From a virus, in IMG/VR virus record IMGVR_UViG_3300040781_000091, positions 1-64,000 of that record: a stretch of 64,000 nucleotides of DNA; one strand, written 5' to 3'. Below the pieces are notes generated by a model. The model saw only the letters and a list, made by a program, of their open reading frames with translations, searched no databases and was not told the DNA's origin. Below are positions 1 to 32,470 of the stretch, piece after piece. Made by a program: the position numbers and the translations under genes. Positions within the stretch are counted from its first letter, which is position 1, and each line of letters opens with the position of its first letter.

Positions 1-1178
1 CCACCGCCCATTCCAAATGCAATATTGCTGATGCTCCACTTGCTCCGAAGCATAAGAGAAACAATTGCTTTTACATCTTCGATGTCGATGCCATCGCCCT
101 GGATAACTCGCACATTATTCAGAACCTTATAACCCGATTTGTTTACAGTATAACCAAACACCTTGCCGAGCTCGCGTACCACTTGCACAGGAGTCTGCAC
201 AGGATCACCACTGTCCGGACGAAATACCCAGGTGGCTCCGCTTGCATCTAATCGATCTTTAAACTTCGGTGCAATTTTACGCACCCAGTTTACCCAGTCG
301 TAGCTATCAATGACAGTCGCAAAGATTGCGCCAGGTTTTGCGTAAGCATCGAACATCTGCGTAATCAGTTGTTCTTCGCCTTCGCGGCCATGCATGGTAG
401 TTGTGCTATGTTCGCTTGCAGGGATACTGAAAGAACTCATCTCACAATTGTAACCAATATTCGCTGCAAGAACAGCAAGAACAGTGTCACTTCCGAGAAA
501 AGAAACTAAGTGGCCGGCGCCAGCGAAAGCGGCTCCTTCGCTCGAAGAAATACCACGGCTACCAAAGTCGTGTAGCTTGAAAGGAATTTCTGCATAGGCA
601 TCGTCTGAGGATCGTTTCAGACCGTCGAGGATTACTTCGCGGATGGCATAGCTCTCTGTAGCAACAGTCGTCGGCGACCATACGCGGACTAATTTAGTTT
701 CGAAGTAGCTAACCAACGAGAACAGACGCTCGTCATCTACTGTGCTTTCCACGGTAATCAACACATTCTTAACGGGAATGAGCAAGCCTTCCTCGGCTGC
801 TCGTATACGAATAGGAAACCACCCGTCGTACTCGTCGACTACTGCGCGAAGTGCAACTTCGAGGTCATCGGTGTGATTACCCATAAAATGTGCTGCTTCG
901 AATGCAACAATGTTGTTCACTTGTTCGTGTGTTAATTGCTGGAGAAAAAATTCTTTGATCAAGAGTTGAAGACCAAAGAACAAAATAGTGTCGTGTTTGC
1001 CGCCACGACTCTCGATGTAAGATACCATTCTCTTGGCACCTTTCGGGTACTGGGCGTGGTGAGTCATTTTATAGGAATCGGTATCGGCGACAGTTCCATA
1101 CTGCTCACGGATAGTTGCCATAATTCCCATTGGATTGAATTTCATCTTCGGTACCGTTTTTACTTTTTGTGCTTTCAT
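1..1178 (-). CDS. nadV: Nicotinamide phosphoribosyltransferase (NadV/Nampt), C-terminus runs off the window
   Basis: Not in the ORF track. Manual translation from ATG 1178 gives MKAQKVK...TDSYKMTHHAQYP, YIESRGG, FFGLQ, HDFGSRG, SIPASEHS, IRPDSGDP, IQGDGI, NIAFGMGG. SD GAGGAG upstream. Confidence 0.93.
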   Translation of the reverse strand, partial: MKAQKVKTVPKMKFNPMGIMATIREQYGTVADTDSYKMTHHAQYPKGAKRMVSYIESRGGKHDTILFFGLQLLIKEFFLQQLTHEQVNNIVAFEAAHFMGNHTDDLEVALRAVVDEYDGWFPIRIRAAEEGLLIPVKNVLITVESTVDDERLFSLVSYFETKLVRVWSPTTVATESYAIREVILDGLKRSSDDAYAEIPFKLHDFGSRGISSSEGAAFAGAGHLVSFLGSDTVLAVLAANIGYNCEMSSFSIPASEHSTTTMHGREGEEQLITQMFDAYAKPGAIFATVIDSYDWVNWVRKIAPKFKDRLDASGATWVFRPDSGDPVQTPVQVVRELGKVFGYTVNKSGYKVLNNVRVIQGDGIDIEDVKAIVSLMLRSKWSISNIAFGMGG

Positions 1179-1220
1179 AATTGAGCTCCTCAATTTTAAC
1201 ATGCCTGTGTCTTTCGCAGG
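1179..1220 (-). promoter_or_regulatory. Two-hairpin leader of nadV
   Basis: CCUGCG-AAAGA-CACAGG, 8-nt spacer, AAUUGAG-GAG-CUCAAUU, AUG. Confidence 0.65.
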
Positions 1221-1239
1221 ACTTCTTGTGTTGTTGTTT

Positions 1240-1267
1240 ATTATAACACCATTGTTATAAATGTCAA
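1240..1267 (-). promoter_or_regulatory. sigma70-type promoter for nadV
   Basis: TTGACA-N16-TATAAT with extended TG. Confidence 0.75.
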
Positions 1268-2391
1268 CTATTTCTTGCTGGGCCAAACGTAGTGGTTATA
1301 TCGTCTGTACCGACAGCATCTGCCACTCTATGGGCAATTTTAGAATAGTTGGCGCCGCATAGTGTGTCTTGGTCGCAGTGAGTTAACACTGCTTTCTTTT
1401 TGTAATCAAACCATGTAAAATACGCCTCGTCGACCATTACATCTCGCTTCATACGCTCGTAATCGAGTGGAGCATATCTTAACGTTTCTTGGAATTCATT
1501 CGGAACGTTTGTATCGTCCTTGAATCCGGGATTAGGCACCTCACCAGGCAACGGCCCGGCGCCGTGTCGAGTTAGGTAGGTTCGAGTAACATAATGAACA
1601 TTAATGTCGGCCTCTGTGCCCTCTAGAAGCATAGCTGGATTTTCTAAGCCAGTACTCGATCGTGTTACAAACGGAAAGTCCTCGCTACGTTGCCCGATAC
1701 GCAAGCCTTGCGCTCCTTCCATTACTATGTTAGTGAATGCAGACATAGCAACCGTGTCTTCCTTCACACCCACATTCATAATAAAGTCAGTAGCATCGCG
1801 TTGAAATATTTCCTGAGCATCTGCAAGAACGGTCAGATTAGGATCTATGCTTAATTCTTCTAACCTCTCCGGCAAATAATTGTTTTCGATCTCTTTGAGC
1901 TTCCAGATCATCTCTTCGGTTTCTTGTAAATCTGCTACAGTAAGAGAATAGCCTCTCTCATGTCGTTCGATTGTTTCGCCTATACCTAAACCACAGCTAC
2001 CGTGTCGTTCTTTTCCTCGGGCACGTTCTATGGCCTGATTAATGAACACATCGTACGGTGTAGTAACAGGACAGTTAGGATCGACGTAGACCCTGGGGAG
2101 ACCGGCTGACAATTTTCCGTACAGATCGAGTGCCTCTCTCCAGAACATAATCGGATTTACTATAAAGAAGCGACTCAGAATAGTTGGAAAACTATCGATG
2201 GTGCCGGCACCGAAGTGATGAAACACATGCCGTCTGCCGTCTGGGAGAACAACAGTGTGTCCTGCTTGGGCGCCACCGTTAAATCTCACAACAGCAGTTC
2301 CTTTGCCTCGTTCGTGTGCTAACCTCTCGGTAGTTGCACCCTTACCTTCGTCGCCGTAGTTAAGTCCGATTACGATATCTACGTTCTGCAT
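1264..2391 (-). CDS. Divergent adenylosuccinate synthetase (PurA)-family ligase
   Basis: GDEGKG, GGAQAGHT, EGAQG, FPFVTRS, TRHGAGP, THCD and C-terminal GP. The Asp-binding loop (GxTTGRxRR) is replaced. Confidence 0.85.
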   Translation of the reverse strand: MQNVDIVIGLNYGDEGKGATTERLAHERGKGTAVVRFNGGAQAGHTVVLPDGRRHVFHHFGAGTIDSFPTILSRFFIVNPIMFWREALDLYGKLSAGLPRVYVDPNCPVTTPYDVFINQAIERARGKERHGSCGLGIGETIERHERGYSLTVADLQETEEMIWKLKEIENNYLPERLEELSIDPNLTVLADAQEIFQRDATDFIMNVGVKEDTVAMSAFTNIVMEGAQGLRIGQRSEDFPFVTRSSTGLENPAMLLEGTEADINVHYVTRTYLTRHGAGPLPGEVPNPGFKDDTNVPNEFQETLRYAPLDYERMKRDVMVDEAYFTWFDYKKKAVLTHCDQDTLCGANYSKIAHRVADAVGTDDITTTFGPARNS

Positions 2392-2405
2392 TCCTATTCC
2401 TCTTG

Positions 2406-3290
2406 TTATTGCCCTGCTCCGTACAGTGCGTACTCGACTGCTTTCTTAGCTCCTGCGCCCTGAGCAGCAGATATAGCATCCTCAGGATCCATTCCTTCGT
2501 TGACCTGAATCACAGCAGTAATAACTTCACTAATGTACTTGTGATCGTTTAGAAAGATTGCTTTCTTTCCTAACACCCTAGTCCAGTTCTTGCGAACCAT
2601 TGCACCGGAGTGCTGAAAGTAGTGTCCTTCTTCAACTACTACGTGAAACACATTGTAGCGTTCTTGCGCTTCTTTCAGATACTCGTCTGCCGTCATATCT
2701 GTCTGGCTGTTGATTCCCATGCTTTCTTTAATCAACTCACGGCTCGCAGTGCGCGGAGGAAGTTCATCACCGATAGTAAACAAGTATCCTTTCTTCCCTC
2801 GCTTGTCAAAGCAATCAATCTTTGTCTTACGGGCAGCGAAAGCCCAAGGTAGGTCATAGCTTTCATAGCTGTTACCACCCCCGCCACCTTCCAGCCACAG
2901 TTCGGTCAACTGATCAGCAATACGTATGTCTGCTTCAAACTGTGTTACCTGTAGTGGCGCACGGTCACACTGAATGTCTCCGATTGCCATCATCATTAAA
3001 TGTGGATCAGTGACTGGCTTAGTGTCTATAATAGACTCAACTAGTGTGCCCAGGCCGTTCTTTGCAATGTGTTCTGCAATAAAGCCCATCGATCCCGTTA
3101 CGTCGAGACCCACAATAATAGCGGTAGACTCTGGATTCTCGTCCGAGTCTACCGACTCTCGAACTGTGATATAACGCGGATCAAACTCTTTGTTAATGCT
3201 CCGCTTTTGGAATACCTGTTCTCGGCTCTTGCCGCTGTAACTAGATGCTCTGGTACTGTATGCTGATCTATCCCATGTTGCATTTCCCAT
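2406..3290 (-). CDS. von Willebrand A (vWA) domain protein
   Basis: MIDAS-like LDVTGSM, GGGGNSYESY, FTIGDE. Confidence 0.85.
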   Translation of the reverse strand: MGNATWDRSAYSTRASSYSGKSREQVFQKRSINKEFDPRYITVRESVDSDENPESTAIIVGLDVTGSMGFIAEHIAKNGLGTLVESIIDTKPVTDPHLMMMAIGDIQCDRAPLQVTQFEADIRIADQLTELWLEGGGGGNSYESYDLPWAFAARKTKIDCFDKRGKKGYLFTIGDELPPRTASRELIKESMGINSQTDMTADEYLKEAQERYNVFHVVVEEGHYFQHSGAMVRKNWTRVLGKKAIFLNDHKYISEVITAVIQVNEGMDPEDAISAAQGAGAKKAVEYALYGAGQ

Positions 3291-3310
3291 TTTACTTCTC
3301 CTTTATTATT

Positions 3311-4024
3311 TTAATTGTTGTCAAAAAAGCCAGACATGTTGCCTTTGCCTTTGCCGTCTTTCATCATGCTCATCATCATCATCATTGGCATCATGTTTTG
3401 CATACCCATGGCGTTCGAGCCGTCACCGTTTGCGCCGAGCTGACTCATAAGCATCATTGGCATGATCTTCTCGAAGTCCATGTCACCGCCCATCATCATC
3501 ATTGGCATTAACATGCCTTGCATATTGCTAAGACCTGCTTTACCATCGGGCAGCATATTCATCAAGCTACGCAACACCATTACGCCACTGTCGAACCCAA
3601 GCATAGAAACCTTGGGTGGAGTCCAGGTATTGCTGACGCCGCCCGGAGTCATCATCTTGAAACGCTTAACCTCGCCTTGCACTACGGTCGCTGGCTCACC
3701 TTCGACAGTCGAAGGCATGGTAGTAGATGCTCCACGCACCACTTCCACTACCCAGCCCTTGAGACTATTGCCCTGGTAGATCAGGTCACCAACTGCAACG
3801 GAATTTAGCGGGGTGTTCTGTGCAAACGCAGGCACTGGCATTCCGAATTGATCCATCAAGTTAATTGCTACTTGTGCATCTTCGCCTTCGCCTTCGATTG
3901 TCACGATGCCGTCGGCAGTCTGAACTCCTACACGGCCAGTGAACATATCCCACACCACGTTGTCAACCTGGCGGAAGAATTGGTTCATCATTTTCTTGCT
4001 AATGTTATTCATATTCATATTCAT
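3311..4024 (-). CDS. Hypothetical protein with Met/Gly-rich low-complexity C-terminus
   Basis: 237 aa ORF, MPMMMM repeats, first gene of the vWA/PurA trio. Confidence 0.8.
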   Translation of the reverse strand: MNMNMNNISKKMMNQFFRQVDNVVWDMFTGRVGVQTADGIVTIEGEGEDAQVAINLMDQFGMPVPAFAQNTPLNSVAVGDLIYQGNSLKGWVVEVVRGASTTMPSTVEGEPATVVQGEVKRFKMMTPGGVSNTWTPPKVSMLGFDSGVMVLRSLMNMLPDGKAGLSNMQGMLMPMMMMGGDMDFEKIMPMMLMSQLGANGDGSNAMGMQNMMPMMMMMSMMKDGKGKGNMSGFFDNN

Positions 4025-4265
4025 TTTCTTTTACTCCTTCTTCGGTTCGTCGTTCTTTGTATTCACCACCGAAAGTTAATACAAAGTTGTGGGCATCATC
4101 TTCGCACTCAAACTCGACGCCCCTTTCTGATCCAATTGCTCGATCTCTCCAGCCACCGGAATCGAATACATGATCACCTCGCAAATTGCTGTCCAGCCAA
4201 TCTTGTACGTCATGGCGGCGAATAGTTTTTACAAAGTGCTTAAACCTAATTGCTAGTGTTTTCAT
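4005..4265 (-). CDS. Hypothetical protein
   Basis: Start reassigned to MKTLAIRF (ATGA overlap with upstream stop, SD GAGGA). Confidence 0.7.
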   Translation of the reverse strand: MKTLAIRFKHFVKTIRRHDVQDWLDSNLRGDHVFDSGGWRDRAIGSERGVEFECEDDAHNFVLTFGGEYKERRTEEGVKENEYEYE

Positions 4266-4447
4266 TTCTGTTTCTCCTCTAGCACTGCTCTTAACGCTGC
4301 GATCTCTGCATTTAGACACGCCATCTCTGCTTGTATCTGTTCTCTGGCATATGCCTTGCCTGCTTCGAAATATGCATCTTTTAGAGCTTCTAGACTATCT
4401 TTTACATTCTTCTCTATTACGATGCGCTCTTCGTCGAGCTTGCTCAT
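4262..4447 (-). CDS. Small coiled-coil hypothetical protein
   Basis: ATGA coupling, SD GGAGG, helical composition. Confidence 0.65.
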   Translation of the reverse strand: MSKLDEERIVIEKNVKDSLEALKDAYFEAGKAYAREQIQAEMACLNAEIAALRAVLEEKQK

Positions 4448-4881
4448 AATTCCTCCATCGCTGTTCCAAACCTTGCGGGCTCGCTGCCTGGCAAAGGTTC
4501 ACGAATTTGGTCAACGTCGTCCTGCCTTCTCAACTCAACTAACTTGTGTACGTTCATGTGAGGGCAAAAGATCATTTCGCCCTGAAACTTAAAGCGTTCC
4601 TCTAGCTCGTGCATCGTTGCAGCCTTTGCAGCATGCCATGCAGTTCGAACTACTTCGCTGTCACACATTGTATCCTGTAGTGGCCAAATACGACAGAACT
4701 GGCGCTCTACTTTTCTCATCCACGGTAGCTTGTCAGCCGACTCGTTATCAAGTGCGTTGAACTGTATCTGCAAGGAATAGTCGCCGTTGCGTTCACGGAT
4801 GACAAATTCAAAGTCTCCACACTCTACTTGCGACAACAATGCGCGAAAGGTGTCTGCATTCTGTAATTTTTTATCGGCCAT
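4444..4881 (-). CDS. Hypothetical protein
   Basis: Start reassigned to MADKKL, SD GGAG. Confidence 0.7.
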   Translation of the reverse strand: MADKKLQNADTFRALLSQVECGDFEFVIRERNGDYSLQIQFNALDNESADKLPWMRKVERQFCRIWPLQDTMCDSEVVRTAWHAAKAATMHELEERFKFQGEMIFCPHMNVHKLVELRRQDDVDQIREPLPGSEPARFGTAMEEL

Positions 4882-5326
4882 TTTCTTTCTCCGGGATATC
4901 AACCCACTCCATGTCCAGCCTGTTTATTACGTCTACTGGTATTGCAATTCTACCAGACTTGTTAATATCCCGGTCTGGTGAATACACAATTTGCAAAGTC
5001 AGATCGTCGGTCTGCTGCACGGGATTTGGTTGCGTCCTGTTCTTTATATTCATCTTCGTAATTTTGAAGATAGTTCCTGCCGGAAAAACAACATCGTATC
5101 TAATGTCGGTATTATGGTTCTGACGATGAATTTGTTTTCCAGTTTTGACATCTGTCCTTCCTGCTACATAATACTGTCCGCGTTCTTTCTCGAGTTCGAC
5201 GAACCCTTTTCGCTCTAAAATCTTTTCTTCTGCTGGACTAGCGCCATACCAGGGCGACAGTGACAAGGTACTGTCAGAAACCAACGCCATTGCTACGCCG
5301 ACTTGCGGAATAAATACCTTATTCAT
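4871..5326 (-). CDS. Hypothetical protein
   Basis: Start reassigned to MNKVFIP, SD GGAG 7 nt upstream. Confidence 0.65.
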   Translation of the reverse strand: MNKVFIPQVGVAMALVSDSTLSLSPWYGASPAEEKILERKGFVELEKERGQYYVAGRTDVKTGKQIHRQNHNTDIRYDVVFPAGTIFKITKMNIKNRTQPNPVQQTDDLTLQIVYSPDRDINKSGRIAIPVDVINRLDMEWVDIPEKENGR

Positions 5327-5849
5327 CGTCATACTCCATTTGTTCGGTTTCGACATCGTTGTAGATAACGTTGCCGTCCTCGTCGTATAGCGTGTCGTTG
5401 TCTACACCCATATTCTGTAACTGTTTGAACAGCTCGTCAACTGTCTGGCCTTCGTCGGCGAGCCCAAAGTCAATTACAGCATTTCCAGGTAAAGAAAAGT
5501 CACCGATCTTCCTTAATTCTCGTAGGATGTGAACATGACATGCACAGTTGTACAAATGACGATCACGATCAGTATCTAACTTTTCAATATCGCCGATGTA
5601 TGGGCCGGACACCATTAGGGCAATAAATGCCAGTGTTGACGGCAATGTAAAAACATCGAGGTGCATAGGATTGTAAACGGAAACCTTGTCAATGTGGTTG
5701 TAAGCAATCGGCCCCCAATAGTCAGTGTCTTCGACAAATTCCATATACGGGAGGACATCGAACTTGCCGGGGTATTGCTCACACAGTTTAACAATCGCTT
5801 TGTCGATTGCATCTTGGTCGATCGGTTTTGTGGGATCTGTTTGTTCCAT
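5319..5849 (-). CDS. Hypothetical acidic protein
   Basis: TAATG coupling to the upstream NadM-Nudix gene. Confidence 0.7.
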   Translation of the reverse strand: MEQTDPTKPIDQDAIDKAIVKLCEQYPGKFDVLPYMEFVEDTDYWGPIAYNHIDKVSVYNPMHLDVFTLPSTLAFIALMVSGPYIGDIEKLDTDRDRHLYNCACHVHILRELRKIGDFSLPGNAVIDFGLADEGQTVDELFKQLQNMGVDNDTLYDEDGNVIYNDVETEQMEYDDE

Positions 5850-6928
5850 TACTTTGCCCTCGCAGTTAACATAGAAATAATGCTGTGATGATCTTCGAAC
5901 AGCTGGTCGCTCATCTCAAGTGCCTCGCTCACCGGAAACCACTTTGCTGCCTCGGCGTCGTCCATCCCTTTTACCTTCGGCAGTTTGCCATCGGGTGGAC
6001 CGGGCAACTCGATAAGAAACGCATTGGTGATAGTTCGCCCTCGCAGGCTACGGTCGGGGTGATCGAAAACCTGCTGATGAGTAATATTTGCCTCGAGCAC
6101 AGGTACCGGCACCTTTACCGCTGTCTCTTCTTTAAGCTCACGGATCATGCCCTGGCGATGCGTTTCTTTCTGATTAAGATACCCGCCGGGCAGAGCCCAT
6201 AGTCCTTTTCCTGGTGCAGACTTGCGCTTAATTAAAAGCACATGGCCGCCCTGAAGAAGAACAGCATCAACCGTACAGAAAGTAACCGGATAGGGTGCAG
6301 CTCTCCATTGCTCTTTGTAACGTTGGATGAAGTTGTACTCTTCGAGTGTATGCTCGAACTCCGGGGAACCGAAGTAGTGCTCAGTCATCCATTGATTTGT
6401 CGGTTCGTGCAGTGCGCCGGCCACAAGTCGATACTGACGATTAAACATCAGGGTGCGTATTTGAGTAGCATCAATTGGGCGCTCGCCCATTTCGACGAAC
6501 TTGTCAGCGTTAACGAAATCGTAGGAAGGAAACCACTTCAGGTAGTAGGTAGTGTGGTCTTTATCGTGACCGACCAAACAGACTTTTGCACCGGTACCGT
6601 GCAGACCCATTTGGTGACAGTTGTCCTGGATGGTCTGTTGCACCTGCTTGATCCACTTGTTATCTTCGTAAAAGTAATCGCGCAGAGGAGCAAACCACAA
6701 CCTTTGATCGGTGTCGTCCTCGAAGTATTGGGGAAGTGCGTTAGTGATCATTTCTTCGCGTTCTTCGTATGTGAAGGGATTGCGAGGATCACGGGCCTGG
6801 AATGCGCTGCCAATTAACACCAAAACATTATCTGCTTGTCTAAATGCTTCGGTAATTAAGGCGTCGTGGCCCAAGTGAAAGGGTTGGAATCGTCCGATGA
6901 CGACGGCAAGTTCATATTTCTTTGGCAT
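5849..6928 (-). CDS. nadM: Bifunctional NMN adenylyltransferase / ADP-ribose pyrophosphatase (NadM-Nudix, NatV-like)
   Basis: GRFQPFHLGH (HxGH), NPFTYEER, Nudix box GGYLNQKETHRQGMIRELKEET. Start reassigned to MPKKY with SD GAGGAG. Confidence 0.93.
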   Translation of the reverse strand: MPKKYELAVVIGRFQPFHLGHDALITEAFRQADNVLVLIGSAFQARDPRNPFTYEEREEMITNALPQYFEDDTDQRLWFAPLRDYFYEDNKWIKQVQQTIQDNCHQMGLHGTGAKVCLVGHDKDHTTYYLKWFPSYDFVNADKFVEMGERPIDATQIRTLMFNRQYRLVAGALHEPTNQWMTEHYFGSPEFEHTLEEYNFIQRYKEQWRAAPYPVTFCTVDAVLLQGGHVLLIKRKSAPGKGLWALPGGYLNQKETHRQGMIRELKEETAVKVPVPVLEANITHQQVFDHPDRSLRGRTITNAFLIELPGPPDGKLPKVKGMDDAEAAKWFPVSEALEMSDQLFEDHHSIISMLTARAK

Positions 6929-6973
6929 TATTGAGCTCCTCAATAAAATTTGGGTGACAAGTCTATCTCGTCA
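6928..6973 (-). promoter_or_regulatory. Two-hairpin leader of nadM-Nudix
   Basis: UGACGAG-AUAGA-CUUGUCA, 8-nt spacer, UUAUUGAG-GAG-CUCAAUAA(UG). Confidence 0.65.
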
Positions 6974-6994
6974 AAGTTATTTATCTATGTGCTT

Positions 6995-7023
6995 ATAATA
7001 ACACCAGATAATTGATTTGTCAA
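6995..7023 (-). promoter_or_regulatory. sigma70-type promoter for the nadM operon
   Basis: TTGACA-N17-TATTAT with extended TG. Confidence 0.75.
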
Positions 7024-7277
7024 GGCCAAGGCGGATTTAATTTGTATAAAATCATCTGCTCTGGGTCAATCTTAACTAAATCGTGTGGATAGAACAATTC
7101 GCTTTTATCGCGCTTGCCGTACTCTACACGTACCATTTTGGGTGTGAAACGAGTAATACGACCTATACCAAACACCCTATCTATCCTACCGGGTTTATTA
7201 ATAACAACATAGTCGTTCAGTTCTATCGGCTGTCCGATAAAATCCGGGAGTTTCTCCGTGCGCTTATCTAGTTCCAC
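7020..7277 (-). CDS. Small SH3/KOW-like hypothetical protein (paralog of 7264-7494)
   Basis: DFIGQPIELNDYVV...GRITRFTPKMVRVEY. Confidence 0.7.
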   Translation of the reverse strand: MELDKRTEKLPDFIGQPIELNDYVVINKPGRIDRVFGIGRITRFTPKMVRVEYGKRDKSELFYPHDLVKIDPEQMILYKLNPPWP

Positions 7278-7494
7278 TTTTCTTTAACCAATACACAATA
7301 GCAACTTCTTCTTCAACAAGTGCTATTTGAGATGTTTGACACAATTTGGTATCGTTTGAGTTAGGTCTATATTCTACCCTACATGCTTTTGGTGTGAATT
7401 TGATAATTTTGCCGACCCGTAGATCCGCGTATCCGGTTTCGTTTGTGACAACCGTGTCGCCTAATTTTAATTCGTTTCCGAGGATGTCTTTCAT
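7264..7494 (-). CDS. Small SH3/KOW-like hypothetical protein (paralog of 7020-7277)
   Basis: DILGNELKLGDTVV...GKIIKFTPKACRVEY; ATGA-coupled start at 7494. Confidence 0.7.
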   Translation of the reverse strand: MKDILGNELKLGDTVVTNETGYADLRVGKIIKFTPKACRVEYRPNSNDTKLCQTSQIALVEEEVAIVYWLKKSGTR

Positions 7495-7856
7495 CCACTT
7501 AGTTCCATGTCGTATAATTCGTTGCATGTGATGCAGCGGTAAGCGGGGGTAAAACGAGGTGCGAATTGGATCATTTCCCATTCGTGTATATGGTCTTTAA
7601 ATTGTTCCAAGACATAACCGTATCCGTAGCAGTTCGGGCATCTACACTTAAAGTGTTTTCCTATGCCGTATTTTCCTAGTTCTAAGTTCCAGCCACCATA
7701 TCCCTTACACTGCTTGCATTCGTGTGTTAAGCGGTCTTTTTTCTCCGGATTTTGGCCAGTTTGCAGCCGGACCATAACTGCTACGTGTGCAGGGCACTCC
7801 TTCTTCTCCATGCCAAGGAAAGCACCGGGATCATCTGGAGTAAGGTATTCGCTCAT
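7491..7856 (-). CDS. Zinc-finger protein with DnaJ-type CxxCxGxG motifs
   Basis: CKQCKGYG, CPNCYGYG, HxH and CxxC. Confidence 0.65.
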   Translation of the reverse strand: MSEYLTPDDPGAFLGMEKKECPAHVAVMVRLQTGQNPEKKDRLTHECKQCKGYGGWNLELGKYGIGKHFKCRCPNCYGYGYVLEQFKDHIHEWEMIQFAPRFTPAYRCITCNELYDMELSG

Positions 7857-8266
7857 TCCTCGTCATCTGATTCGTCTAACTCGATATCGAATCCCAATTC
7901 TTCCAGGAGCTTCAGCGTAACATCTCCGTGTACCTCAGCATCGAGACTGAACATCTTACGCTCTTGCATACCTTGCTCGCTTCCGCCGGCATTGTAAACA
8001 AGGGTTCCGATCTCTTTGTGGTTCGAGATAAAATTGTTTATTGCCTGTTCTATCCCGGCATCCGTGTAGCACAGACCGTACTTGTTTGCGTCAGTGTCGT
8101 GGTATGCATTAATACTTGCATACCAGTCGTCGGGATCAAACGACTTAATCTCGACCTCAAGACGGTTAAACTTAACTACCGTTCCGGGTTCCATGCCATA
8201 GAGACCAGACCCATCAGCTACGCCTTCGAAATCTACAACATAAGTCTTAGTAGTCCAGATATCCAT
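7853..8266 (-). CDS. Hypothetical protein
   Basis: ORF behind the sigma70 promoter at 8297-8324, SD AGGA. Confidence 0.7.
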   Translation of the reverse strand: MDIWTTKTYVVDFEGVADGSGLYGMEPGTVVKFNRLEVEIKSFDPDDWYASINAYHDTDANKYGLCYTDAGIEQAINNFISNHKEIGTLVYNAGGSEQGMQERKMFSLDAEVHGDVTLKLLEELGFDIELDESDDEE

Positions 8267-8296
8267 TTAACTGTCCTGCTTGTTTAAGTTGTGTAT

Positions 8297-8324
8297 ATTA
8301 TACAACTTTTAGCAGAAAAGTCAA
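8297..8324 (-). promoter_or_regulatory. sigma70-type promoter
   Basis: TTGACT-N16-TATAAT. Confidence 0.7.
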
Positions 8325-8330
8325 CCACTC

Positions 8331-8546
8331 TTAAAATTTTGTACTCAGTATATCAGCGGCGTCAGTGATGTTTTCTACTGCTAATCGCAATTCTTCTTCG
8401 GCCCTCTCGCAATCGTCAATTAGTTCGCCGATGTCGCTTTCCATTTGCCTGAGCGAATCTCTGCGCTTAGAGAGTATGCCCATTTCTTTCTCTAGCTGTT
8501 TTGCCATCGACTTTAGTTTACGATCGATTTTGGGTTCAGTTGTCAT
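8331..8546 (-). CDS. Small coiled-coil protein
   Basis: Heptad-like helical sequence. Confidence 0.65.
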   Translation of the reverse strand: MTTEPKIDRKLKSMAKQLEKEMGILSKRRDSLRQMESDIGELIDDCERAEEELRLAVENITDAADILSTKF

Positions 8547-8547
8547 A

Positions 8548-8967
8548 TCATAGTCCTAATTGTAGTATAAGGGTAATTGAGTCTTCTTTACTGAAGTGCA
8601 AACACACCTGCTCGAACCCATGGAATGTATATTCTGCATCAGGATAGTAGTTGTCTATTACTTCCCGCAATAATTTCTGTGCTCTCGTCCATTCTTCGTC
8701 TTTTGCTCTAAATCCAAATTGCAAATAACAATCGAATTTCTGTCGCGGGTGCCCTTTATGTTTTCCTACTTTCGTCTTTAGGAAGATTGGCAAGACGTTG
8801 TGATCTTTCTGCTCATCGTATGGTCGTGGTATAGACGGATATATGTCAGTGATAAATTCACCAGACGGACGAGCGTATATCCAAACACTGTTTGCTTCGA
8901 GCCACGCCAGAATGTCTTCTGTTTTATGCATTCTCGTTAATACGATAGAAATACCGTTGTGTGTCAA
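8548..8967 (-). CDS. Hypothetical protein (start may be ATG 8931)
   Basis: Tiles with its neighbours. Confidence 0.6.
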   Translation of the reverse strand: MTHNGISIVLTRMHKTEDILAWLEANSVWIYARPSGEFITDIYPSIPRPYDEQKDHNVLPIFLKTKVGKHKGHPRQKFDCYLQFGFRAKDEEWTRAQKLLREVIDNYYPDAEYTFHGFEQVCLHFSKEDSITLILQLGL

Positions 8968-9211
8968 CTACGTGGGTCATCGGCAACTTCTGCCAAATCT
9001 TTCCGTCGGGGGACCGTTCTATTACTACTCCGCCGTTTGCAATAGTCTGTATTACAAACGCCGGAGGAATAAGAGTAAACCCTTCGTAATAGTCAACACG
9101 ATTAAACCAGGCTTCCTCGACTGCCTGCCATGGATTATCCATATAGTATGGATCGCCGTCGACCGAAGAAAGAAATGCATTCCATTCGTCAATTTGAACC
9201 TGATTTCTCAT
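8924..9211 (-). CDS. Hypothetical protein
   Basis: Starts 1 nt after the rtcB stop. Confidence 0.6.
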   Translation of the reverse strand: MRNQVQIDEWNAFLSSVDGDPYYMDNPWQAVEEAWFNRVDYYEGFTLIPPAFVIQTIANGGVVIERSPDGKIWQKLPMTHVVDTQRYFYRINENA

Positions 9212-31680: not shown

Positions 31681-32391
31681 TTACGCCCCCTTCGCGAGTG
31701 ACATAAATTCTGCGCGAGTTGCTGGATCGTCTTTAAATGCTCCGCCTAGTTTACTTGTAACAGTGTGTGAGTGGTAATCCTGGATACCACGATTCTTAAC
31801 ACAACCATGTTCAGCATCAATCAACACTGCTACGTTCTCAGTTTCGAGAATGAATTGCAAGGCGTGAAAGATCTGTCCAGTGAGACGCTCTTGTACTTGA
31901 GGACGTCTACAGAAATAATCAGTTACACGATTAAGCTTCGACAAACCGAGTACTTTCTCATTCGGAATATATGCAATTGTTGCACTGCCAGTAATAGGCT
32001 GAAAGTGGTGTTCACAAAATGAAGTTACGTTAATAGATTTCTCCATTACCATTTCGTCGTATTGCATTTTGTTATCTACCACAGTACACTTCGGAAAAGT
32101 ATCGGTATCTAAACCATAAAACAATTCTGCCACATACATTTTTGCAACACGATTAGGTGTGTCACACATACTGTCATCGCTCAGGTCTAGTCCCAGAACA
32201 GTCATGATATCTTTCATGTGAGTTTCGATTTGTGCGATTCTCTCTTTAACTGAGAGAGGTCGGTATTCTCCAACTGTACCGCTTATATGCACCTGGTCGG
32301 GCTTTGTCGGAGTATCCATTCCAATTGATTCTAAATATTTTTGAACTCTTAGACCGAGTTCGGGGTCGCACTTGCGTTTGTCTAAGGACAT
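31681..32391 (-). CDS. folE: GTP cyclohydrolase I
   Basis: DTPNRVAKMY, CEHH, GLSKLNR, QVQERLT, HGC; start reassigned to MSLDKRK with SD AGGAGG. Confidence 0.93.
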   Translation of the reverse strand: MSLDKRKCDPELGLRVQKYLESIGMDTPTKPDQVHISGTVGEYRPLSVKERIAQIETHMKDIMTVLGLDLSDDSMCDTPNRVAKMYVAELFYGLDTDTFPKCTVVDNKMQYDEMVMEKSINVTSFCEHHFQPITGSATIAYIPNEKVLGLSKLNRVTDYFCRRPQVQERLTGQIFHALQFILETENVAVLIDAEHGCVKNRGIQDYHSHTVTSKLGGAFKDDPATRAEFMSLAKGA

Positions 32392-32470
32392 GTTTGATAA
32401 CCTCCTGTTATCGTTATTATTATTTTGATACGACACAAACCGCCTGCTTGTGTGTCGTTTGTATTTATTA

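Follow-up and report, generated by a model that had tools for sequence, protein, structure and literature searches.

The leaders of nadV and nadM-Nudix in the window, the whole 64,000-nt stretch of phage DNA analysed here, are two copies of a widespread, uncatalogued cis-acting 5′ leader RNA family of the nadM-nadV module. In phages and bacteria, the leader RNA is almost confined to the starts of nadM and nadV, and it probably controls their translation. As judged from the sequences, it could best be explained as a poised translational operator of the NAD-salvage module, most likely read by NadM-Nudix, a reading that we hold tentatively (probability about 0.45).

The window is a jumbo-phage fragment that encodes both genes of the NARP2 pair (Nampt and NMN adenylyltransferase; bioRxiv 10.1101/2024.02.11.579819), with enzyme activities predicted from Pfam and NCBIfam matches. 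The nadV product matches NAMPT_N and NAPRTase (Pfam; PRK09198 in NCBIfam, 404 bits), and that of nadM-Nudix matches CTP_transf_like and NUDIX (Pfam; NF003786 in NCBIfam, 375 bits), upholding the gene identities given in the original prediction. A megablast of positions 1–8000 against a phage collection returned zero matches, indicating that the source phage has no close relative among cultured phages. The features of the two loci, all on the minus strand, are as follows.

3..1178 (−): nadV, nicotinamide phosphoribosyltransferase; start ATG at 1178..1176; 3′ end lost at the contig start
1179..1195 (−): nadV hairpin 2; 7-bp stem (A + AUUGAG / CUCAAU + U) with a GAG triloop; contains the Shine–Dalgarno (SD) sequence AGGAG; AUG directly after
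1196..1203 (−): nadV linker, 8 nt, CAUGUUAA
1204..1220 (−): nadV hairpin 1, CCUGCG-AAAGA-CACAGG; pentaloop closed by G-C; one C.A mismatch; aligns to hairpin 1 of the covariance model R1
1240..1267 (−): nadV promoter-like site, TTGACA, 16 nt, TG-n-TATAAT; 12/12, consensus match only
5849..6928 (−): nadM-Nudix, bifunctional NMN adenylyltransferase / ADP-ribose pyrophosphatase, 359 aa; AUG at 6928
6928..6946 (−): nadM hairpin 2; 8-bp stem with a GAG triloop; contains the SD AGGAG; the A of the AUG takes part in the last pair
6947..6954 (−): nadM linker, 8 nt, CCCAAAUU
6955..6973 (−): nadM hairpin 1, UGACGAG-AUAGA-CUUGUCA; 7 bp including one G.U; pentaloop closed by G-C
6995..7023 (−): nadM promoter-like site, TTGACA, 17 nt, TG-n-TATTAT; 11/12, consensus match only

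The two promoter-like sites are the best sigma-70 matches in positions 1–8000, and each has an extended −10 TG, in agreement with the earlier view that nadV and nadM are separately promoted. Transcripts are predicted to start at about 1233 and 6988, giving both genes leaders of about 55–60 nt. The 15-mer ATTGAGGAGCTCAAT lies 1 nt before each ATG and occurs exactly twice in the 74,178-bp record (1194..1180 and 6944..6930). As predicted, the pair flanking it differs in a compensatory manner, A1195-U1179 in nadV and U6945-A6929 in nadM, where U6946-A6928 is added. The hairpin 1 stems are unrelated, whereas both loops read A(A/U)AGA and are closed by G-C (G-AAAGA-C at 1215..1209 in nadV, G-AUAGA-C at 6967..6961 in nadM), and the gap between the hairpins is exactly 8 nt in both leaders when maximal stems are taken. 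The identity of the 15-mers is nevertheless a local peculiarity, as the hairpin 2 stems of nadV and nadM differ within one genome in relatives.

The hairpin 2 structures have folding energies of −4.6 kcal/mol (nadV) and −5.7 kcal/mol (nadM). In each, the A and G of the SD AGGAG are paired in the stem, while the GAG forms the triloop. The SD thus lies inside the hairpin, but the claim that it is buried there was too strong, since it is only partly paired and the hairpin over it is only marginally stable. The whole nadM leader folds better than its shuffled versions (z −2.55), and that of nadV no better (z −0.39). The mean folding energies of the start region (−28..+6) were −4.5 kcal/mol for nadM and −3.7 kcal/mol for nadV, as compared to −3.1 kcal/mol for 157 control genes (p 1e-7).

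Two covariance models of the family were used, R1, which was built from the leaders of other phages, and a second model, R2. With filters off, R1 detected the nadM leader in the 64-kb window with 42 bits (E 2e-6; the seed includes L003, an identical copy) and the nadV leader, which is absent from the seed, with 34.6 bits (E 7e-5). The next best match had 16 bits (E 0.34); with only two R1 hits above noise, the observation that no other leader of the window has the two-hairpin element was borne out. The R2 search of the source record retrieved the nadM copy only, and its loose first pass seems to have missed nadV. On 554 kb of phage loci, R1 gave 87 hits: 37 at nadV, 33 at nadM and 17 before nadA or small phage genes, mostly at the head of a nadM operon. 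Bacterial nadM-nadV loci contributed 75 further copies at the same two positions.

The phage alignment of R1 strongly supports the two hairpins. Pairing was found in 92.1% of the cells, versus 35–45% in slid controls, and both sides had changed in 414 cells, versus 118 ± 9 in shuffles. Covariation was detected at 13 of the 14 pairs, and a separate regex parse of the leaders showed the same pattern. Compensatory changes are thus abundant in relatives; at 39–65% protein identity, their nadV and nadM leaders have different stems and the same loops. Apart from the A-n-A-G-A of loop 1 and the ribosome-binding site, no sequence is conserved, and the stems are free to vary. The pentaloop of hairpin 1, located 36–44 nt before the AUG, is AUAGA in 53 of the 85 distinct copies, and minority types carry GGA (ACGGA, AUGGA, GUGGA). 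Its positions 2–3 are variable, and its closing pair, usually G-C, alternates with C-G. The stem of hairpin 2 comprises 5–9 bp and is topped by the SD (aAGGAg); the AUG overlaps the 3′ arm or follows it after 0–4 nt. The window leaders resemble the family in loop 1, in the SD hairpin, in model score and in their sense-strand position before nadM and nadV. Many nadM and nadV leaders retain hairpin 2 with a different or missing hairpin 1, implying that hairpin 2 may have a role of its own. The family consensus contains no conserved junction or internal loop. Inspection by eye of loop 1 against the linker, the 3′ arm of hairpin 2 and the coding start revealed no consistent pseudoknot partner, with a single-case pairing possible in LucasX.

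All 162 model hits in the phage and bacterial loci are on the sense strand of the gene, and hairpin 2 is closed most often by a G.U pair (49 of 85). Together with the differing stems within a genome, these data indicate that the element acts at the level of RNA and not of DNA. Thus, it is highly improbable that the palindrome ATTGAG-GAG-CTCAAT is a DNA operator to which a transcription factor dimer, for example NrtR, binds, even though an inverted repeat lies downstream of each promoter and NrtR regulates nadM-nadV in Synechocystis (PMC2330246). The pairing is conserved and the palindrome sequence is not, and within one genome the palindrome of nadM differs from that of nadV. An NrtR-type operator was disfavored on the same grounds of unconserved stems, common G.U pairs and hits confined to the sense strand. 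An Rfam 15 scan of positions 1–9000 with E up to 10 gave only noise, with no match at the leaders, as did a scan of seven related loci. Our literature searches on nadV or nadM with riboswitches, on NAD+ riboswitches with Nampt and on the PyrR binding loop retrieved no description of the element.

The element is shared by phages and bacteria. It is present in the cultured phages LucasX (Xanthomonas), BUCT-ZZ01 (Synechococcus) and SCTP-2, at nadM and nadV of Xanthomonas, Stenotrophomonas, Lysobacter, Pseudoalteromonas, Budvicia and other bacteria, and, as a weak copy, in a cyanobacterial MAG. In phage loci carrying nadM, it also precedes unrelated genes, namely nadA and members of several PHROG families. 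Structure scans of a complete 359.5-kb phage genome (G003) singled out nadM and nadV, and R1 gave one extra weak hit there, before a gene with no assigned function. In ten whole bacterial genomes, all significant hits are at the start of nadM or nadV, and each cistron of the bacterial nadM-nadV operon is preceded by its own copy.

The distribution of the element points to NadM. We found no element on nadV in four Gammaproteobacteria lacking NadM, nor in five complete phage genomes that have NadV and lack NadM-Nudix. The absence from these nine genomes is distribution evidence for a NadM link; the identical pattern would be expected of a riboswitch that acts in cis and is passed on with the operon. 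The presence of NadM does not require the element, as one genome (G080) encodes unlinked NadM and NadV and the element was not found in it. In all five checked genomes with the element on nadM, nadV is adjacent, which also leaves NadV as a candidate reader. The loop 1 type tends to match between the two leaders of a genome, whereas their stems are unrelated. Given the exceptions (L049 and L065) and shared ancestry, this agreement is only suggestive of a co-evolving protein. A comparison of NadM from loci with and without the element revealed no residues or basic insertions separating them, in a negative set that held duplicates and sub-threshold copies.

Of the predicted translational operator or riboswitch, what stands is a conserved RNA element on the translation start of both NAD-salvage genes. 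On its own, hairpin 2 would probably not keep the ribosome out, which suggests that the leader is poised for a reader. Such a reader would bind hairpin 1, in the docking zone of the 30S subunit, and perhaps also contact the similar A-A-G-G-A apex of hairpin 2. Once bound, it would clamp the structure or occlude the site, and thereby set the output of both enzymes. With NadM-Nudix as the likeliest reader, this would create feedback on the whole nadM-nadV module, and the ligands of the enzyme (NAD+, NMN, ATP or ADP-ribose) might modulate it. Counted against this operator are the genome with both enzymes and no element, the lack of a distinguishing residue in the NadM comparison and the window nadV fold, which is close to shuffles. 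Moreover, we know of no RNA-binding domain in NadM-Nudix, which counts against NadM as the reader.

A new small riboswitch, in which NAD+, NMN, nicotinamide, ADP-ribose or PRPP binds in a pocket made by the hairpins and linker and thereby stabilizes or opens the SD hairpin, is a plausible alternative that we consider unlikely. It would need no shared protein to account for the regulon-like spread over nadV, nadM, nadA and neighboring genes in very different phages and bacteria, and the separate copy for each cistron of the bacterial operon and the strong covariation with few invariant nucleotides are compatible with it. The guanidine-II riboswitch, composed of two small hairpins and a variable linker, provides a precedent. 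However, only four loop nucleotides are conserved beyond the ribosome-binding site, loop positions 2–3 and the orientation of the closing pair vary, and the consensus offers neither a conserved junction or internal loop nor, by inspection, a consistent pseudoknot partner for loop 1. A metabolite sensor would also not predict that nadV lacks the element in the nine genomes without NadM. It is quite unlikely that the leader acts independently of a ligand, with hairpin 2 throttling or tuning translation and hairpin 1 stabilizing or marking the mRNA (5′ protection, operon processing). The weakness of the hairpins would fit such a role, as would the occurrence of hairpin 2 without hairpin 1 or with a different one in Astolliot, XacN1, Muenster and phT4A, and hairpin 1 of G003 begins at the conserved end of the promoter consensus, a likely transcript start. 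This leaves unexplained the invariant A-n-A-G-A loop over unrelated stems and the restriction to one module among the hundreds of genes in each genome.

It is very unlikely that the leader is read by a general RNA-binding protein of the host, such as a dimer of the CsrA/RsmA type that would bridge two A-N-G-G-A-like hairpin loops, including the one on the SD. Each leader presents two apical A-N-R-G-A motifs, one over the SD, with loop starts 25–32 nt apart in most copies, and GGA is present in a minority of the loops. CsrA binding requires a G at the position that is A in AUAGA, the loop of 53 of the 85 distinct copies. CsrA, named as a candidate in the original prediction, is therefore a poor fit, as most copies have no GGA in loop 1. 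A Synechococcus phage carries the element too, and the cyanobacterial MAG has its weak copy; to our knowledge, such hosts have no CsrA. Genome-wide hits are confined to NAD genes, unlike a global regulon.

Depleting NAD+ is one of the main ways in which bacteria defend themselves against phages, and phages can counter it with NARP2. We found no description of expression control of this pathway in the literature, and a conserved, covarying 50-nt RNA before both enzymes provides a handle for testing it, in uncultured jumbo phages, in the cultured LucasX and BUCT-ZZ01 and in the tractable Xanthomonas and Stenotrophomonas. If NadM-Nudix is the reader, it would be a novel case of a NAD-pathway enzyme with a second function in repressing translation through RNA binding. 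If the leader is a riboswitch, a minimal class common to phages and bacteria would be new; a phage would read the NAD state of the cell it infects directly through RNA, and would turn on its NAD-rebuilding counter-defence when host immunity depletes NAD+. The element also flags uncharacterized phage genes of PHROG 1843, 12218, 33851 and 37251 as probable members of a NAD-related regulon.

Among known systems, the PyrR binding loop (RF00515) has the consensus ARUCCAGAGAGGYU and is read by an enzyme-like protein. It is likewise a hairpin with a purine-rich pentaloop; the exact C-AGAGA-G occurs in a minority of the NAD leaders, and the hairpin base in nadV-type copies reads GUCC...GGC and may contain a bulged U. 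On the other hand, most loops here read AUAGA within a G-C closing pair, and the upper stem has 3–5 bp more. The element also lies on the SD and AUG of NAD genes, whereas PyrR attenuates the transcription of pyrimidine genes. Even the AGAGA-type loci gave no Rfam match to a PyrR site with E up to 10. CsrA/RsmA leaders similarly carry two A-N-R-G-A motifs at hairpin apices, one on the SD, at a spacing that a dimer can bridge, whereas loop 1 of the NAD leader is mostly AGA, not GGA, and only one gene module carries the element. Site assignment calls for GGA in at least two loops, and the window leaders have AGGAG in hairpin 2 and AGA in both copies of hairpin 1.

The NAD+-I (nadA motif) and NAD+-II (pnuC motif) riboswitches also reside in the 5′ leaders of NAD-metabolism genes, and NAD+-II likewise acts on the SD (PMC10085692). 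The present element differs in its gene set, nadM and nadV, and in its architecture of two plain hairpins, which lacks a bulged domain, a triple helix and a long-range pseudoknot. Consistent with the predicted dissimilarity, no Rfam 15 model matched at either leader, and membership in both classes was rejected. NrtR is a Nudix-related transcriptional repressor of NAD genes (PMC2330246). Its regulon resembles that of the NAD leader in the co-regulation of nadM-nadV and nadA, and NrtR derives from the ADP-ribose-binding Nudix fold that NadM carries; its winged helix, absent in NadM, binds conserved DNA palindromes, whereas here it is a sense-strand RNA structure that is conserved.

The E. coli thrS operator of ThrRS, the T4 gene 43 operator and the MS2 replicase hairpin bound by the coat protein are autogenous operators. 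The NAD leader differs from them in serving at least two separately translated pathway genes, in phages and bacteria, in a loop sequence that resembles none of theirs and in a protein reader that is, as yet, proposed. It is like them in being a small hairpin with a sequence-specific loop at or over the ribosome-binding site and stems free to covary, and in the proposed control of the reader's own synthesis at translation initiation.

The window covers bases 1-64,000 of an IMG/VR virus record that is 74,178 bp long and about 21% complete (CheckV), which identifies it as a fragment of a jumbo phage. A second IMG/VR contig (L003, IMGVR_UViG_3300040801_001740; 6.8 kb) has a nadM whose protein is the same throughout, preceded by the same 200 nt of leader and promoter sequence, so this phage or one very close to it was sampled twice. 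Nearly all genes of the window lie on the minus strand. Judged by their sequences, nadV and nadM-Nudix are a NARP2 pair, the combination of Nampt with an NMN adenylyltransferase (bioRxiv 10.1101/2024.02.11.579819). The original prediction gave each gene its own promoter, and the top two sigma-70-type matches of the first 8 kb do lie directly before nadV and nadM, giving predicted leader lengths of ~55 and ~60 nt, respectively. The features of the two genes are as follows.

ATG at 1178, minus strand: nadV, 3' part beyond the contig start (Pfam NAMPT_N and NAPRTase; NCBIfam PRK09198)
6928..5849, minus strand: nadM-Nudix (Pfam cytidylyltransferase-like and NUDIX; NCBIfam NF003786)
1267..1240, minus strand: predicted sigma-70-type promoter of nadV, 12/12 match, extended -10 TG
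7023..6995, minus strand: predicted sigma-70-type promoter of nadM, 11/12 match, extended -10 TG
1220..1204, minus strand: nadV hairpin 1, CCUGCG-AAAGA-CACAGG
6973..6955, minus strand: nadM hairpin 1, UGACGAG-AUAGA-CUUGUCA
Minus strand, 8 nt in nadV and 8 nt in nadM: linker from hairpin 1 to hairpin 2, read from the sequence
Minus strand: nadV hairpin 2, shared 15-mer plus flanking pair A-U, AUG directly after
Minus strand: nadM hairpin 2, shared 15-mer plus flanking pairs U-A and U-A, the last pair using the A of AUG

A divergent adenylosuccinate-synthetase homologue (1264-2391, minus strand) lies directly downstream of the nadV promoter region. Although the PHROG family that it matches, 1211, is annotated as the PurZ-type enzyme, it scores far under the curated cut-offs for both PurA (115 vs 402 bits) and PurZ (51 vs 300 bits).

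The two-hairpin leader claimed for both NAD genes is present on the minus strand, and folding recovered both hairpins in each case. The other details of the claim also held: the 8-nt spacing, the compensatory flanking pair (A-U in nadV, U-A in nadM), and the common 15-mer, the core of hairpin 2, which occurs at only these two sites in the whole record. Hairpin 2 has little stability (-4.6 kcal/mol in nadV, -5.7 kcal/mol in nadM). Overall, the nadV leader is no more stable than its shuffles (z -0.39), and the nadM leader is more stable (z -2.55). Because the folding is weak, thermodynamics alone is insufficient, and the claim is carried by the comparative evidence.

The nadV relatives on other viral contigs (39-65% identity) have a Shine-Dalgarno (SD) hairpin with quite different stems, often preceded by a hairpin with the same loop, and the same is true of their nadM genes. 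In G003, a complete phage genome of 359.5 kb, the hairpin 1 loops at the two NAD genes are AUAGA and AAAGA, and the hairpin 2 stems of nadM and nadV differ. Both genes also carry the leader in the cultured Xanthomonas phage LucasX and Synechococcus phage BUCT-ZZ01. A variant with a 3-bp hairpin 1, GGC-GA(A/U)AGA-GCC followed by AAAC, was found in Salicola phage SCTP-2 (L042; GGC-GAUAGA-GCC) and in loci L011-L013; in SCTP-2 it makes up a block of 35 nt that is almost the same ahead of nadM as ahead of nadV. This type is scored poorly by the models, so the family is wider than they show.

When 80 further viral loci were parsed with a strict pattern, 44 of 89 distinct nadM leaders had both hairpins, as did 29 of 66 nadV leaders, all with different stems. 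From 25 of the parsed leaders, a covariance model (alignment A2, model R1) was built, which located 87 copies in 554 kb of phage loci, every one on the gene strand. The original prediction looked to covariation in homologous leaders, and it is pronounced: in the R1-hit alignment, which is fitted to R1 and therefore biased toward the model, covariation is seen at 13 of 14 pairs, the share of paired cells is 92.1% (35-45% with slid partners) and both sides have changed in 414 cells (118 +/- 9 in shuffles), the same pattern being given by the model-free parse. Near-invariance is confined to A-n-A-G-A in loop 1, the pentaloop of hairpin 1, and to aAGGAg in hairpin 2. GAUAGAC occurs in 53 of 85 distinct copies, other forms being CAGAGAG, CAGUGAG and GACAGAC, and loop 1 lies 36-44 nt from the AUG.

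These data rule out a common DNA operator of the NrtR-box kind: the 162 model hits, from phage and bacterial loci together, are all on the sense strand, hairpin 2 is most often closed by G.U, and the palindromes are unlike between the two NAD genes of one genome. The leader is also retained across different predicted promoter classes, the same NAD genes having sigma-70-type promoters in the window's phage and a T4-late-like consensus in G003. That consensus, aAUAAAUAuuCCUGU, precedes many G003 genes, including nadV and nadM (e.g. 175444 and 162251, minus strand; loci L021-L038).

The open reading frames downstream of the 87 phage copies are nadV in 37 cases, nadM in 33 and others in 17. In one phage locus (L061), the leader (L061:868-916) precedes a quinolinate synthase gene, nadA (L061:914-1804; Pfam NadA, 1e-83), so that nadA, of de novo NAD synthesis, and nadV bear the same leader. 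It also precedes genes of four PHROG families, all without assigned function.

L111:1673-1996: PHROG 12218, leader upstream
L091:1631-2005: PHROG 33851, leader upstream
L121:1645-1998: PHROG 37251, leader upstream
L104:1326-1970: PHROG 1843, leader upstream

Three small proteins of these families are encoded directly upstream of nadM, and the leader therefore heads an operon there. All four may have roles related to NAD or to counter-defence. In the window, the motif is not equally common before unrelated genes: the model finds the NAD genes only, the next match having E 0.34. In G003, R1 finds nadV, nadM and a weak third copy (20.9 bits, E 0.41) between them, at 168036-168088 on the minus strand (L029:8036-8088); it has a 10-bp hairpin 1 with an AUAGA loop and then a U run, and precedes a 287-aa Met/Ala-rich protein without assigned function. 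Elsewhere in the window, a clean SD-in-loop hairpin, GAUAAC-AGGAG-GUUAUC (32396-32412, minus strand), stands 4 nt upstream of the ATG of a 236-aa ORF (31681-32391), with no hairpin 1 and no match to the leader model.

In most of 80 bacterial NadM-Nudix loci, the leader lies just before nadM, the nadV that follows, or both. The bacteria include Xanthomonas, Stenotrophomonas, Lysobacter, Dyella, Pseudoalteromonas, Budvicia, Caulobacter, Oceanospirillales and a cyanobacterial MAG. R2, a new version of the model made with bacterial as well as phage copies, gave significant matches only at nadM or nadV in ten whole bacterial genomes. Among 151 sampled Gammaproteobacteria, 3 have NadM-Nudix and 7 have NadV; two of the three with both enzymes carry the leader, each on both genes, and it is absent from nadV in all four NadM-less genomes. 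One genome with neither enzyme detected (G162) gave a weak 24-bit match. Likewise, no copy precedes nadV in five complete NadV-positive phage genomes without NadM-Nudix (Staphylococcus phage 812, a Felixounavirus, ICP1, Bacillus phage PPIsBest and Acinetobacter phage Acj61); the single 17.7-bit match in ICP1 is inside the coding region. With 0 of 9 NadV-only genomes carrying it, the leader follows NadM-Nudix, or the nadM-nadV pair, and not NadV per se. In five genomes searched for the leader on nadM without nadV, nadV was adjacent in all five.

Compared with 157 other genes from these loci (mean -3.1 kcal/mol), nadM and nadV have start regions with a little more structure (means -4.5 and -3.7 kcal/mol), a small but significant difference (p 1e-7), and the second of the two covarying hairpins sits on the SD and AUG. 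Going by what de Smit and van Duin reportedly established for SD hairpins, a hairpin 2 of about -5 kcal/mol would not be enough alone to shut off initiation; being this weak, it makes the leader look poised. A reader that binds the conserved loop 1, within the 30S docking zone, could clamp or occlude the site. Since the leader occurs in unrelated phages and bacteria, such a reader must be a metabolite, a universal factor or something encoded alongside the leader.

We tentatively favour NadM-Nudix itself as the reader (probability about 0.45), because the leader depends on NadM-Nudix and has spread to other genes in nadM loci. Direct sensing by a riboswitch is a less probable possibility; it fits less well given the few conserved nucleotides, the lack of a conserved junction and the fact that NadV-only genomes do not have the leader. 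Somewhat less probable still is a passive structural leader, which would leave the invariant loop unexplained. CsrA-type control is very unlikely, being contradicted by AGA where GGA is expected and by the copy in a cyanophage.

The leader matched no family in Rfam 15, whether NAD+-I, NAD+-II, the PyrR site or any other, in line with the original view that it is neither NAD+ riboswitch, and no description was found in the literature searched. It comes closest to translational operators read by proteins and, in looks, to the PyrR binding loop; the leader is a new family of an already known type of element.
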